From a virus (Duplodnaviria; Caudoviricetes), in IMG/VR virus record IMGVR_UViG_3300020577_005688, positions 64,001-128,000 of that record: a stretch of DNA of 64,000 nt, one strand, 5' to 3'. Below the pieces are notes generated by a model, which worked only from the letters and a program-made list of their open reading frames with translations, had not been told where the DNA came from and did not search any database. Below are positions 58,990-63,630 of this stretch, piece after piece. Both the position numbers and the translations under genes were made by a program. Position 1 is the stretch's first letter. Every line of letters begins with the position of its first letter.

Positions 58990-58998
58990 GGCATAAGA
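58990..58998 (+). promoter_or_regulatory. GGCATAAGA candidate phage promoter element
   Basis: Identical to 4511-4519; 37 nt upstream of the ATG at 59036. Confidence 0.5.
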
Positions 58999-59608: not shown

Positions 59609-59784
59609 GCTTGGACGGCCACGCCCTGCAAGGCGTGACTGGTGACTAGGGACATTCATCGTGCCGACACCGCAGCCCAATCAATCAAAGGGCAGAAGTA
59701 CAAACCAACACCCACAGTAAAACCTCAGTAAACGTGTGTCCCGACACGTTTAAGGGGGTTTTGTCGTCTCAAGGAGCTGGGAAT

Positions 59785-61824
59785 ATGAGCAAGAGCCTCT
59801 CACCAGAAACAATCTCGAAGTACGCAGTAAAGTGGGGTCCTATCGGGGAACCCGTCTACAAACGGTCATACAGCAGAGTGAAGGAGGACGGCTCAAAGGA
59901 AACCTACCCTGAGACTGTCGTCCGAGCAGTTGATGGAAATATCGGACTCGTCGATAAGAAGTTCATCGAAGAAGGAGAGCGAGAGAAGCTCATCGAACTT
60001 CTCTTGGAGTTCGCAGCAATCCCAGCAGGCCGTCATCTTTACGCTTCAGGGGTAAAGGGCCGACAGTTCCTGTTCAACTGTCATGCGGCTGGATGGGATG
60101 CAAAGGCTCCCTGGGACCACTTTGGGTTCCTCTTCGACGAACTCATGCAGGGCGGTGGAGTCGGTTCAAATTACTCAAATCGATACATGCAATCATTGCC
60201 ATCGATTGAGAGGTCTGTAGACTTGCACGTCGTCTGCCGCCCGGACCACCCCAACATTGAGGAGTTCCAGGATCTCCTTTGCCGAGTGACGCAGGGTGAC
60301 GTCAACGCACACTCAAACGTGTTCAAGGTCCCGGACACTAGGGAGGGATGGGTCGAGGCCGTCGAGCACATCCTCCGTGCTGCGTGGGGTGAGCACAAGA
60401 ACGGAGAAGCGAGACTCGTCATTGACGTCTCTGACATCCGTCCTCGTGGGGAGTTGCTCAAGACTTCTGGTGGCATCGCGTGCGGTCCGGGTCCACTGGT
60501 CTCGATGCTCCATGACTTCACGAAACACCTCAACGGCTGCATTGGTCGTACTCTCACATCACTCGATGCGATGGTTCTGGACCATGCTCTTGCTTCGTGC
60601 GTGATTGCAGGAGGGAAGCGCCGCTCAAGCCGGATGTCAGTGAAGAACTGGAAGGACAGTGACATCTTCGAGTTCATCAACTGCAAGAGGCAAGACGGAG
60701 CGCACTGGAGCACGAACATCTCTGTTGAGGTCGATGACGATTTCATCATTGCGTACAACATGGGAGATGAGCACGCGAAGTCGGTCATGCGTGCAGTCAT
60801 TCTCGGAAAACGCAGCAACGGAGAGCCAGGTCTCTGGAACCGCAGCTTGGCGATGAAGGATGAGCGCGACCCAGAGTTGATGTTCTGCCCAAACCCATGC
60901 GGAGAGATTGGGCTTCAGATGTGGGAGAACTGCAACCTCGGCCACATCAACCTGCAGTACTACGCCTCGAAGCCAAATCGCGAAGCTGCAGAGGCTTTCC
61001 GTCTCATGACTCGTTGGTTGATTCGCGCCACGTTCGGGGACATCCCACAACCTCGCCAACGTGAAGTCGTGGACCGCAATCGTCGTATTGGCGTCGGCTT
61101 CTTCGGATACCACGGATGGTTGGCTATTCGTGGTCTGAAGTACTCTGAGGCGTATAAGGACGCTTCTGTTCAGAACGCACTCAACCTGTTCAGGACGACT
61201 GTTCAGAACGAAGCTCGTGAGTACTCAGCTGCTCAGGGAATTCCTTGTCCAGTGAAGAACACGACACTCGCACCGACGGGGACGATTGTGCTGATGCCTG
61301 GCGTGTCCGCAAGTGGACAGGCGGTCATTTACAGACACTTCAAGAGGCTGGTCCGCTACGCAGACACGGACCCCGAACTCGAAGTGAAGAGGAAAGAGGG
61401 ATACAAAATCTTCAAGGATGATGATGCTCGCAATACTCAGATTGTCGAGTATTGGTGCGAGGATCCACTTGTCTCCATCCTGAAGGCGAAGGGCCTGGAT
61501 GCTGATGACCTTGTTGAGTGCCAGGACGAGTTGAAGTTGGAGGACTCTCTTGGGACGCAGAAGATGATTCAGTCTTGCTACGCAGACAATGCCATCTCCT
61601 TTACCATCAACATGGGAGAGGACAAGATGCCGACAGAGGATGCAATGGAGAAGGCCTTCTTCGAGGCTCTCCCATTCATCAAAGGAACGACATTCTTCCC
61701 AGAAAAGAGCAGGAAGAACGCCCCATACCAGAAGCTCTCTCGTGCAGAGTGGGACGCGTACACTGGCCGAAAGGAAACCATCCAGGTCGAAGACGAGTGC
61801 AAGACGGGATGCCCAGTGCGTTGA
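59785..61824 (+). CDS. nrdJ: Class II (adenosylcobalamin-dependent) ribonucleotide reductase, monomeric RTPR type
   Basis: PAGR.L, FNC, MQGGGVG, AGGKRRS, NPCGE, RRIGVG, LAPTGT, C-terminal ECKTGCPVR. No beta subunit nearby. AAGGAG SD before ATG 59785. Confidence 0.9.
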   Translation: MSKSLSPETISKYAVKWGPIGEPVYKRSYSRVKEDGSKETYPETVVRAVDGNIGLVDKKFIEEGEREKLIELLLEFAAIPAGRHLYASGVKGRQFLFNCHAAGWDAKAPWDHFGFLFDELMQGGGVGSNYSNRYMQSLPSIERSVDLHVVCRPDHPNIEEFQDLLCRVTQGDVNAHSNVFKVPDTREGWVEAVEHILRAAWGEHKNGEARLVIDVSDIRPRGELLKTSGGIACGPGPLVSMLHDFTKHLNGCIGRTLTSLDAMVLDHALASCVIAGGKRRSSRMSVKNWKDSDIFEFINCKRQDGAHWSTNISVEVDDDFIIAYNMGDEHAKSVMRAVILGKRSNGEPGLWNRSLAMKDERDPELMFCPNPCGEIGLQMWENCNLGHINLQYYASKPNREAAEAFRLMTRWLIRATFGDIPQPRQREVVDRNRRIGVGFFGYHGWLAIRGLKYSEAYKDASVQNALNLFRTTVQNEAREYSAAQGIPCPVKNTTLAPTGTIVLMPGVSASGQAVIYRHFKRLVRYADTDPELEVKRKEGYKIFKDDDARNTQIVEYWCEDPLVSILKAKGLDADDLVECQDELKLEDSLGTQKMIQSCYADNAISFTINMGEDKMPTEDAMEKAFFEALPFIKGTTFFPEKSRKNAPYQKLSRAEWDAYTGRKETIQVEDECKTGCPVR

Positions 61825-61831
61825 AATTTGT

Positions 61832-61840
61832 GGGATAAGA
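61832..61840 (+). promoter_or_regulatory. GGGATAAGA candidate phage promoter element followed by a hairpin
   Basis: Motif copy; the ATGCCAAGGC/GCCTTGGCAT stem lies just before the GGAG SD. Confidence 0.5.
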
Positions 61841-61895
61841 ATTTAGACACGATGCCAAGGCGCAACTTGCCTTGGCATTTGTGTTTGGAGACTCG

Positions 61896-62153
61896 ATGGC
61901 CGCTTCTCAAAATGACATTGAAGGATGGGTTCGAAGCGCTCTCAAGAAAGGATGTACTCACCTTCTCGTCGTGTGTGACGACTTCGACTACGAGGATTAC
62001 CCAGTCGAGGTAATGGAAGGGGAGGACATCAGAACCAAAATGGAGGAGTACAACTTCAAAAACATGCAACGAATCATGGAGGTGTACTCCATGAAAATGC
62101 CAATCGATCTCCAGCTTCTGGAGAGAAAAGCATGGCACCCCGATCACAAGTGA
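61896..62153 (+). CDS. Hypothetical phage protein
   Basis: GGAG SD before ATG 61896; THLLVVCDDFDYEDYPV. Confidence 0.65.
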   Translation: MAASQNDIEGWVRSALKKGCTHLLVVCDDFDYEDYPVEVMEGEDIRTKMEEYNFKNMQRIMEVYSMKMPIDLQLLERKAWHPDHK

Positions 62154-62161
62154 GGACTGAA

Positions 62162-62419
62162 ATGGAACTGATGAGTTCTGAACAGCAGACATTCCGAGGC
62201 GAGATCGCCGTCATGGACGGAACCGGTGACTCGAAGTTCATGTGGGACCCGAAGAACCCTGACGAGGTCGCGGCTGCGAAGGCACAGTTCGATGCGCTGA
62301 AGAAGAAGGGATACATCGCATTCACCGTCGACAAGAAGGGAGATAAGGGGGAGATCATCCGTGAGTTCGATCCAGAGCTCGAAAAGATCATCATGACTCC
62401 TCCGATTGCCGGAGGGTGA
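62162..62419 (+). CDS. Small protein ending in PPIAGG (ubiquitin-like/sulfur-carrier-like C-terminus)
   Basis: 85 aa; GAGGA SD; C-terminus IIMTPPIAGG-stop. Confidence 0.6.
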   Translation: MELMSSEQQTFRGEIAVMDGTGDSKFMWDPKNPDEVAAAKAQFDALKKKGYIAFTVDKKGDKGEIIREFDPELEKIIMTPPIAGG

Positions 62420-62420
62420 C

Positions 62421-63329
62421 ATGAGAAGCTCAGGTGCGGAGAGGTTCAAACCTTCCATCGGAGAGAGGCTCAGACAGTCCTCAGAAGACAAGAAGTTGAG
62501 AGGATCCAGGAGGCCCAAGAAGGAAAAGCCAGAACCACAACCTCCTCAACCTGCGCCAATCGGCCCAACTCTCGTCTCAATCACAACCAACAATCCCGAC
62601 GGATTCTTCAGGCCTGGGGGTGGTATCATCCGAATCAGAACTGCAACAACAGACTGTAACAACACCGTCTGGTATCAGTGGACGCAGACTGGTTGCACTG
62701 GAGATACGTGGGACCAGTGGCAGTCACTTCCCATCACCCTCACCACAACAAGCGCTTCTACTGTGTGGGAGTCTTGGGTCGATACAGGCACTGGACGCGG
62801 GAATCGGCTTCTCAGACCAGATCCACGACCGATTACACGAGCGGCTCCCAGACCCGCAATCGAAGTCATCGAAACTGAAGAGGAGAGAAGGAGACGGAAC
62901 GAGCAGTTCGAGCGCTTCCGCCGTGAGGAAGAAGAGAAGAATCGCAAAATCCGTGAGGCGTACGGACGAGCGATGGATCTCCTGAAGAGTTGCTTGAACA
63001 ATGAACAGCGGGACTCTTTGGAGAAATCGAAGTTCTTCTACGTCACTGCACCGTCTGGTCGTAAGTACAGAATCGATGAAGGGACGCACGGAAATCTCAA
63101 GGTTGTGAACAAAGAAGGAAGAGTCATCGAAAGACTCTGCGTTCAGCCGAATGATGTGCCAGCGGGAGACGCAATGCTGGTACAGAAACTCATGATCGAA
63201 ACTGCAGAAGACGCTCTCCGGAGACATGCCAACATCACGTTGGAGAATGGGCAGATGTTGTACGGAGATCGAGCTCTTCTCGACAACCAGAAGCTCGCAG
63301 ACATCATCCCCATCAGGAGAGCAGGGTGA
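62421..63329 (+). CDS. Hypothetical protein: disordered Trp-repeat N-half, charged helix, Cys-containing C-domain
   Basis: Starts 1 nt after the GG-protein stop; RLCVQP..VP.GD.ML.QKL. Confidence 0.65.
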   Translation: MRSSGAERFKPSIGERLRQSSEDKKLRGSRRPKKEKPEPQPPQPAPIGPTLVSITTNNPDGFFRPGGGIIRIRTATTDCNNTVWYQWTQTGCTGDTWDQWQSLPITLTTTSASTVWESWVDTGTGRGNRLLRPDPRPITRAAPRPAIEVIETEEERRRRNEQFERFRREEEEKNRKIREAYGRAMDLLKSCLNNEQRDSLEKSKFFYVTAPSGRKYRIDEGTHGNLKVVNKEGRVIERLCVQPNDVPAGDAMLVQKLMIETAEDALRRHANITLENGQMLYGDRALLDNQKLADIIPIRRAG

Positions 63330-63541
63330 AGACGTTCGGGATGAAGAAAGCAATCGAAGGAGTCGACAGCGTCGATGTTCCTGTCGGTGAGCAGTGCTTC
63401 AACTGTGAGAAGACGCTCACAGTTGAAGACTGTGGCTTCATTCTCCCGTACCACTTCGTCGAAAATGACGAACACCTGGTACGGGAGGTTTCGTATCACC
63501 GAGCATGTCTCATGAAGAATCTGTTCGGTGAAGATGGGTAG
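63326..63541 (+). CDS. Small Zn-binding-like protein
   Basis: CFNC...HRAC; GTGA overlap. Confidence 0.55.
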   Translation: MKTFGMKKAIEGVDSVDVPVGEQCFNCEKTLTVEDCGFILPYHFVENDEHLVREVSYHRACLMKNLFGEDG

Positions 63542-63595: not shown

Positions 63596-63630
63596 AAAAA
63601 GAGCGTCAGGGGCTGCAACCCCTGACGCTC
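63596..63630. terminator. Terminator between convergent genes (T-tract on the minus strand)
   Basis: AAAAA-GAGCGTCAGGGG-ctgcaa-CCCCTGACGCTC; perfect 12-bp stem. Confidence 0.8.

Follow-up and report, generated by a model that had tools for sequence, protein, structure and literature searches.

A phage gene pair encoding a predicted beta-grasp protein with a conserved Gly-Gly end and a partner with an invariant cysteine

What does a bacterial virus do with a small protein that ends in Gly-Gly and is encoded one nucleotide ahead of a larger protein with a conserved cysteine? The question is raised by a locus in a 64,000-nucleotide stretch of phage DNA (hereafter the window), which comprises bases 64001-128000 of a 141-kb IMG/VR virus record (IMGVR_UViG_3300020577_005688; estimated completeness 75%). 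A preliminary description of the window had proposed that an 85-amino-acid protein ending in PPIAGG and a cysteine-bearing partner starting 1 nt later form a minimal ubiquitin-like (Ubl) system. The sequence bears out this arrangement of the two genes. We found the pair to be a self-contained, widely distributed two-gene phage module, and we tentatively suggest that it may be a Ubl carrier or conjugation module that borrows its activating enzyme (E1) from the host. The two genes lie as follows.

62162-62419, + strand: gene of the 85-amino-acid predicted ubiquitin-like (beta-grasp) protein P0001; the translation ends in PPIAGG, followed by the stop codon
62411-62416, + strand: terminal Gly-Gly codons GGA GGG, which double as the Shine-Dalgarno-like GGAGGG of the partner gene
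62421-63329, + strand: gene of the 302-amino-acid partner P0002; its ATG lies 1 nt past the stop of the small gene, and the two are translationally coupled

A GAGGA located 5 nt before ATG 62162 favors this start over ATG 62132 for the small gene, whose stop codon occupies 62417-62419. The C-terminus of its product, IIMTPPIAGG (EKIIMTPPIAGG) followed by TGA, resembles that of E. coli MoaD (FPPVTGG). A word-based search for the small protein returned 38 homologues of 74-99 amino acids, all of them metagenomic, and a scan of IMG/VR added 37 further loci of the gene on contigs of 7-235 kb. G84 and G85 were near-invariant among the 38 homologues. A GG terminus was seen in 67 of 76 distinct sequences (88%), the remainder comprising four that end in AG, one each in GA and PG, two in which GG carries a short extension (GGSR and GGALGYD), and one fragment; 72 of the 75 complete small proteins were Gly-terminated. 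Longer fused forms were absent from the results of the word-based search, which is weak evidence.

The preliminary description had cautioned that the codons for GG also form the Shine-Dalgarno site of the partner. This overlap is indeed present in the window, but among homologues the GG is encoded by 13 different codon pairs (most commonly GGC GGC), and GGAG or GAGG occurs in only 10 of 36 of them. This variety of codons argues that the constraint acts on the protein and not on the Shine-Dalgarno site of the partner gene, and it rules out a Shine-Dalgarno need as the reason for the conserved GG.

The proposed coupling of the two genes extends far beyond the window. In a scripted survey, every locus with enough flanking sequence encoded the partner domain downstream of the small gene and on its strand. 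Overall, the partner gene comes directly after the small gene in all 44 distinct phage loci that were examined, with neighbors that are otherwise unrelated. A reciprocal scan starting from the partner gave the same result: wherever a new locus had enough upstream sequence, a small gene with a GG end preceded the partner gene. The gap between the two genes was within -8 to +8 nt in 31 of 41 measured loci. All-against-all clustering of the flanking open reading frames (ORFs) of the 44 loci revealed no third conserved gene. Because the pair recurs in 44 distinct loci, it is not a chance arrangement. In syntenic relatives it sits behind a reductase gene, with a DNA ligase gene downstream in close relatives; elsewhere it lies beside DnaB and VWA genes, or beside Fic and nucleotidyltransferase genes, with equally tight coupling. 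Further instances came from Virus Rctr197k and a 595-kb megaphage, where an ORF lies in between. No prophage copies were detected in a pattern scan of limited sensitivity across 185,579 species genomes, GenBank phages held no close member of the pair, and full-text literature searches returned no description of such a phage pair. A protein of Agrobacterium phage Atu_ph07 gave a weak fold match in BFVD and was set aside, as there was no profile match in that genome.

Some loci showed unusual arrangements of the pair. In a 435-kb phage with terminal repeats (IMGVR_UViG_3300037313_001869, L058:2422-2493) the two proteins are encoded in a single reading frame, with the junction ...PPMQGG-L-MVML... 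(GGT TTA ATG), and an identical junction was seen in a second contig from another sample (L060). One T fewer at this point would give the usual TAATG overlap. The junction may have arisen by a 1-nt change in that overlap; otherwise it is a natural fusion. A 436-kb megaphage (IMGVR_UViG_3300032782_000001, L059:2623-5035) has one small gene with two tandem partner paralogues after it, and a third partner-domain gene on the opposite strand. A 40.7-kb phage contig (L032:1335-1965, 4001-4733) carries two whole pairs about 2.7 kb apart, the small proteins of which end in GG and AG, respectively.

The fold of the small protein was predicted with AlphaFold2 (AF2). The model (predicted local distance difference test, pLDDT, 76) has the order strand-strand-helix-strand-strand-strand, with strands at residues 13-18, 23-28, 52-56, 62-66 and 75-79, a helix at 33-49, and a floppy tail (pLDDT 55); this fits the alpha/beta protein foreseen in the preliminary description. 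Structural matches were nearly all beta-grasp proteins (PB1, SUMO, ISG15, Raf-RBD, protein L/G, TtuB, Ufm1 and the bacterial Ubls 8tyx and 8tyz), and all of them were weak, with Foldseek E values around 1e-2 and none below 9e-3, and with VIA Z no higher than 5.4. With VIA, TtuB (5gha) scored Z 3.5-4.2 and an archaeal ThiS/MoaD-like protein (1ryj) Z 3.8. No match was found among PDB sequences. We therefore read the small protein, from its model, as a ubiquitin-superfold protein with a MoaD-like tail that stands outside every named family. The preliminary assignment to ThiS/MoaD/SAMP-type beta-grasp proteins thus survives at the level of predicted fold and structural matches, and does not extend to membership by sequence profile.

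The partner is predicted to be modular, with a variable N-region rich in Thr, Ser and Trp, a long helix, and a conserved domain of about 100 residues whose modelled layout recalls a miniature E2/RWD domain. Its regions and invariant residues are as follows.

62433-62507, + strand: basic N-terminal helix, residues about 5-29 (RFKPSIGERLRQS...), from alignment A3; AF2 helices 6-9 and 13-29
62658-62780, + strand: Thr/Ser-rich segment with three WxxW motifs, in a low-confidence part of the model (pLDDT <50)
62877-63029, + strand: long charged helix and short helix, residues 153-203 (AF2 153-191 and 194-203, pLDDT >90)
63030-63242, + strand: conserved globular domain, residues 204-274; in the AF2 model a four-strand meander, a loop and two helices
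63138-63140, + strand: codon TGC of the invariant Cys240 (Cys in 180 of 180 aligned members; invariant in alignments A2, A3 and A5)
63168-63170, + strand: codon GAC of the invariant Asp250 (Asp in 180 of 180), which starts the helix predicted to pack on the small protein
63243-63326, + strand: clade-specific C-terminal extension, residues 275-302 (...KLADIIPIRRAG), restricted to the close clade and modelled as wrapping around the small protein

The motif of RLCVQP type, the charged helix and the three W-x-x-W repeats reported earlier were all located, and the cysteine singled out there is the invariant Cys240. It opens the loop C240-V-Q-P-N-D-V-P-x-x-D250, within the segment RLCVQPNDVPAGDAMLVQK that spans residues 238-256; across the family the motif reads C-x-[H/Q]-P-x(3-8)-[V/L]-P-x-x-D. 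Asn225 is retained by 179 of the 180 aligned members, as is Gln255, and Asn271 by 178. An invariant His was not found: at position 242, 97 members have His and 78 have Gln, and His223, present in the reference and its close clade, is missing from divergent members.

The three WxxW motifs are VWYQW (83-87), TWDQW (96-100) and VWESW (115-119), and W84, W87, W97, W100, W116 and W119 are each at least 90% conserved in alignment A3. Most of 41 diverse partners examined have two to four WxxW motifs in a T/S-rich N-region, and the basic N-terminal helix is kept in the larger-phage clade only, being missing from shorter family members. As a further observation, the N-terminal half is Thr/Ser-rich, almost Lys-free, of low complexity, variable and poorly modelled across the family. 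Homologues of the partner range from 166 to 530 amino acids with the C-terminal domain common to all, and standalone forms of the domain exist (113-152 amino acids). When a profile built from 43 diverse C-domains was searched at E ≤1e-3 and the results were clustered at 50% identity, 11,773 metagenomic clusters were obtained, 8,308 of them with E ≤1e-10.

In the AF2 model of the partner, residues 150-290 (pLDDT mostly >90) form a long and a short helix, four antiparallel strands, a loop and two helices. Cys240 ends the fourth strand in this model and is followed by a seven-residue Pro-rich loop. An exhaustive VIA search placed Ubc9 first (Z 4.7, root-mean-square deviation 3.3, 84 residues aligned) and also returned RWD domains (Z 4.4, 4.1, 3.6 and 3.5); further E2-type entries in the top 50 were Ube2W, UEV, FANCL, BubCD, CdnG-E2, Cap2, UBE2J2, UBE2S, UbcH10 and UbcH5. 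About 19 of the 50 best rows were E2, RWD, UEV or bacterial E2 domains. Because every Z is under the level that the tool treats as informative, we call the modelled domain 'E2/RWD-like in layout' and do not claim membership.

Searches for named families were made in parallel. Pfam, PHROGs, NCBIfam and PADLOC gave no match for the pair or for the two small genes flanking it, no family recurred when all A1 and A5 members were scanned at E up to 10, and none of ten partner members scanned reached any Pfam family cut-off. PDB sequence profiles returned coiled-coil noise only (troponin I). Pfam DUF7737 had no match at E up to 1 in five pair-bearing phage records; A5 members matched 53 families, and DUF7737 does not appear within the first 25. 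The ESM Atlas held unnamed clusters only, viral by sequence features and bacterial by predicted shape.

The preliminary description had raised the question of whether the GG tail comes near the partner Cys. A complex of partner residues 140-302 with small-protein residues 9-85, each given as an alignment, was predicted in three runs, which gave interface scores (ipSAE) of 0.79, 0.79 and 0.77 against 0.01 for the best of three controls. The ipSAE mark is reached by 58 of 80 solved complexes and by 2 of 110 mismatched pairs, counts that are rough because own alignments were supplied. The runs shared at least 93% of contacts, and the pLDDT of the partner chain was at least 85. In the predicted complex the small protein sets its sheet face against the partner's first post-sheet helix, and its tail follows the C240-x-[H/Q]-P...P-x-x-D250 loop. 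On the partner side the interface is made up of residues 240-247, 250-262, 269-271, 176-193 and, from the clade-specific tail, 282-296; these face the tail (79-85), first hairpin and sheet face of the small protein. The modelled tail site is lined by the invariant Cys240 and Asp250 together with Pro243, Pro247 and Asn271, and partner residue 250 touches small-protein residues 18 and 79. The model supports 1:1 non-covalent binding and carries no information on chemistry; its arrangement resembles closed E2~ubiquitin. Covariation between tail residues and partner loop residues showed no clear pattern.

The absence of E1/ThiF and JAB genes noted earlier for the window was confirmed, and extends to the whole 141-kb record, in which neither a ThiF-family E1 nor a Prok-JAB gene was found. 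ThiF was absent from 36 of 37 pair-bearing IMG/VR records and from all 15 pair-bearing records that are at least 90% complete, including a 196.8-kb terminally repeated close relative. Prok-JAB was absent from 17 of 18 near-complete pair-bearing records and present in one of 21 records. Of 14 control genomes of bacteria and archaea, 12 had ThiF-family genes, so a host E1 should be generally available.

The distant jumbo phages Rctr197k and LR756511 were seen to share a cluster that encodes a ThiF-like E1, a JAB-like protein and a DHH/DHHA1 phosphoesterase and also includes several unknown genes (L012:3696-9519, in KX853510.1 at about 175.7-181.5 kb; L013:4090-8760, in LR756511.1 at about 280-285 kb). 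In both phages about 60 kb separate it from the pair; possibly it represents another, independent phage system of Ubl or nucleotide type. The cluster is ruled out as the general partner of the pair, as near-complete genomes are generally without both enzymes.

How, then, might the pair work? The tiny-residue end on a MoaD-like tail, a partner whose only invariant side chains are Cys, Asp, Asn and Gln without a His, and the tail lying on the Cys in the model point to a reactive C-terminus that meets a nucleophile, as it does in E2~Ubl. A catalytic His is required in a papain-type peptidase and is not required at an E2-type site. It is thus possible, and to us the reading to be preferred tentatively, that the pair is a ubiquitin-like carrier or conjugation module relying on a host E1. 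The Gly-Gly carboxylate would be adenylated by a host MoeB/ThiF-type E1, which is the simplest energy source because the phages carry no adenylase. The activated small protein would then be passed onto Cys240 as a thioester, and it may be delivered to a target picked by the variable N-region of the partner or be retained as a carrier-bound intermediate.

Several observations weigh against this reading. The best Z of the partner (4.7) is below the 7-8 that the tool gives as typical for models without a clear match, the Foldseek search with the partner model returned no match, and a second-look structure search gave Z of at most 3.9. The catalytic Cys of a canonical E2 lies 7-10 residues past the HPN; Cys240 precedes the [H/Q]P turn by two residues, and there is no Cys after the turn. 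The turn Q-P-N-D-V-P has P-x-x-x-P spacing as in RWD-type domains, yet the invariant Cys is present, so the RWD-type definition does not apply. No sequence profile ties either protein to the ThiS/MoaD, UQ_con or Prok-E2 families, and the Pfam ThiS (PF02597), MoaD and ubiquitin profiles matched none of 39 small-protein members at E up to 10. Finally, there are the AG, GA and PG ends, the GGSR and GGALGYD extensions and the in-frame fusion, and no processing peptidase was identified for these. Of the proposal made in the preliminary description, then, the conserved GG, the invariant Cys, the gene linkage and a predicted complex stand. The likeness of the partner to E2 folds has weak Z scores, and its Cys is off the canonical position.

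The extended and fused forms fit better with two other explanations. We consider it unlikely, if by no means far-fetched, that the proteins form a purely non-covalent 1:1 complex in which the Gly-Gly tail is a plug or latch in a narrow, conserved groove of the partner and inhibits or regulates it much as an antitoxin or immunity protein would, with Cys240 either structural or a catalytic residue under a mask. The strong predicted interface buries the tail, as this would require, and the translational coupling, constant adjacency, missing third conserved gene and lack of both E1 and JAB all suit it; the fusion and C-terminal extensions also indicate that the pair may be able to do without a free GG carboxylate. 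However, if the tail were only a plug, there would be no reason why 88% of sequences end exactly at GG, or why the tail imitates the PPxxGG found in adenylated carriers. Weak, isolated hints of a colicin D tRNase (Foldseek E 0.16-0.3; one member with Pfam 'Cytotoxic' at E 0.058) would also suit it, but these are at chance level (template modelling score 0.33-0.36, root-mean-square deviation about 10 A) and no toxin-like family was matched in library scans. The same irregular ends would need trimming to expose GG in phages without a JAB, and this favors a partner that is a Cys-dependent Ubl-specific peptidase, deubiquitinase-like or self-processing, with the small protein as its substrate, product or bait. 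The predicted pose, with the tail on the Cys loop, is like that of a product complex. A possible job would be to strip host Bil/Bub-type Ubl tags off phage proteins, in keeping with the attachment of a Ubl to phage tail proteins by bacteria that a preprint outlines (bioRxiv 10.1101/2023.09.04.556158). We give this little credence: the missing conserved His argues against it, there being no other invariant general base and position 242 varying between His and Gln, most small proteins are already GG-ended and leave nothing to cleave, and no likeness to papain-like, OTU, UCH or JAB folds was seen in structure searches with the partner.

Three further explanations each seem improbable. The MoaD-like PPxxGG tail would suit a sulfur-carrier pair similar to MoaD-MoaE or TtuB-TtuA, in which a host E1 and sulfurtransferase turn the C-terminus of the small protein into a thiocarboxylate and the partner uses or relays the sulfur, with Cys240 as persulfide or acceptor, to a nucleic acid or metabolite. 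TtuB and the archaeal ThiS/MoaD-like protein are among the fold matches of the small protein, its tail is predicted to insert beside an invariant Cys, Asp and Asn, and the tail of MoaD inserts into MoaE in a comparable way. In this phage the pair also lies amid genes of nucleotide and DNA metabolism (ribonucleotide reductase upstream, and DNA ligase downstream in close relatives), but the neighbors vary among phages. The searches with the partner revealed no likeness to PP-loop, rhodanese, MoaE or ThiG proteins, and sulfur relay leaves the variable T/S/W-rich region unexplained, making this a doubtful account. Just as doubtful is an anti-defense decoy: by imitating an E2~Ubl in its charged state, or else a Ubl substrate, the pair would trap or mis-load enzymes of host ubiquitin-like defense, namely the E1 or E2 of Bil, Bub or the Cap2 of type II CBASS (systems that signal against phages by way of cyclic oligonucleotides). 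The pair acts like a mobile cassette of two genes, placed in early-gene contexts that vary, has no activation enzymes of its own, and counts the bacterial E2s BubCD, CdnG-E2 and Cap2 among the weak fold matches of its partner. Defense systems are sporadic, whereas the pair is very widespread (about 11,800 partner clusters); PADLOC gave no match (anti-defense libraries were not searched), and a decoy has no obvious need of an invariant Cys. There is also a slim chance that the pair is a complete tagging system which activates the Gly-Gly end without an E1-type adenylase, through new chemistry at Cys240 and Asp250. The phage would then tag host or phage proteins by way of the Trp/Thr-rich targeting region of the partner, and the in-frame and extended precursors may hint at how the energy is supplied.

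Returning to the preferred reading of a carrier or conjugation module, the closest known systems are Bil and Bub (PMC10557695, PMC11601596), in which a small beta-grasp protein, reactive at its C-terminal Gly, accompanies a small E2-fold protein with a single conserved nucleophile; the predicted beta-grasp protein and the Cys partner with its E2/RWD-like layout would correspond to these. Bacterial E2 domains were among the weak matches of the partner (9eav BubCD, 8hsb CdnG-E2 and 7to3 Cap2) and bacterial Ubls among those of the small protein (8tyx and 8tyz). Unlike the pair, Bil and Bub always have a peptidase as well as an E1; in Bil, the JAB processes the Ubl beforehand and the E1 has its own catalytic Cys domain (PMC10557695). 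The pair also differs in being phage-encoded and not in defense islands, in having its Cys before and not after the HP turn, and in showing neither sequence similarity to these systems nor a PADLOC match.

With canonical E2, RWD and UEV domains the partner shares, in its model, a helix, a four-strand antiparallel meander, an [H/Q]-P-x-x-x-P turn (compare HPN and YPxxxP) and two helices, and the predicted position of the Ubl on the first post-sheet helix may be compared with closed E2~Ub. Unlike a canonical E2, it has seven residues in the loop between strand 4 and the helix, versus about 27, and it carries its invariant Cys at the end of strand 4; Z is below the homology level and there is no profile match. 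Like MoaD, ThiS and TtuB, the small protein has a hydrophobic strand followed by PPxxGG on a small predicted beta-grasp, next to a gene whose product is here predicted to receive the tail. Unlike them, it has no match to the Pfam ThiS/MoaD profiles at E 10, its partner does not resemble MoaE, ThiG or TtuA, and the pair-bearing phages encode no E1 or sulfurtransferase. A phage-encoded Ubl domain with a conserved C-terminal Gly also occurs in tail assembly protein I (TAPI) of lambda and T1, which has the JAB/NlpC protein K as its partner (Iyer et al., 2006, PMC1779556). TAPI, however, is part of a tail-assembly cluster, fused to a C-terminal domain and accompanied by a JAB, whereas the pair lies outside any tail cluster and has a Cys partner and no JAB. 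RWD-like inactive E2 domains occur in bacterial Ubl operons (PMC1779556).

In the window, the + strand between 59.7 and 63.6 kb carries the reductase gene, a 93-amino-acid ORF, the small gene, the partner gene, a 71-amino-acid ORF and a hairpin, in that order. The features around the pair are as follows.

59734-61824, + strand: class II ribonucleotide reductase, upstream of the pair
61872-62153, + strand: 93-amino-acid acidic ORF, adjoining the pair upstream and matching no family
63326-63541, + strand: 71-amino-acid ORF P0003 with CxxC...HxxC, overlapping the partner stop by 4 nt
63601-63630, unstranded: strong GC-rich hairpin between convergent gene sets (13-bp stem, nine GC pairs, T run on the - strand)

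The 93-amino-acid ORF is kept solely in syntenic jumbo-phage relatives (85-86 amino acids in L001 and L003). P0003 was considered as a RING-like E3 of the module and rejected: its match to Pfam Prok-RING_1 was weak (E 0.077), and the downstream gene is kept in the closest relative only. The hairpin probably terminates the + strand transcript of the pair, and the gene beyond it is convergent.

A helicase and a family A DNA polymerase are also encoded in the window. On the - strand, positions 25496-58920 hold a row of very large ORFs (1511, 1411, 900, 1551, 717, 1065, 437 and 1108 amino acids), probably a structural or tail module. A PHROG scan of seven large ORFs of this run gave a sole match, weak and to a family of unknown function, for the ORF of 1551 amino acids; that of 1108 amino acids is Gly/Ala/Ser-rich and resembles a tape-measure protein. 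Copies of GGNATAAG were noted upstream of + strand genes at 58990-58997 and 61832-61839 (+ strand), and the window showed no enrichment for it (four copies versus 2.5 expected by chance).

To our knowledge, ubiquitin-like conjugation in prokaryotes has so far been a tool of the host only (Bil, Bub, CBASS type II, sampylation and TtuB), and always has a dedicated E1. If the pair conjugates, bacterial viruses would also tag proteins, perhaps by hijacking the sulfur-carrier E1 of the host; if it does not, it would represent a new use of a Gly-Gly beta-grasp tail. In either case a two-gene module without E1 and peptidase is present in thousands of uncultured phage lineages, and its partner, with about 11,800 clusters at 50% identity, is one of the larger unannotated protein families.

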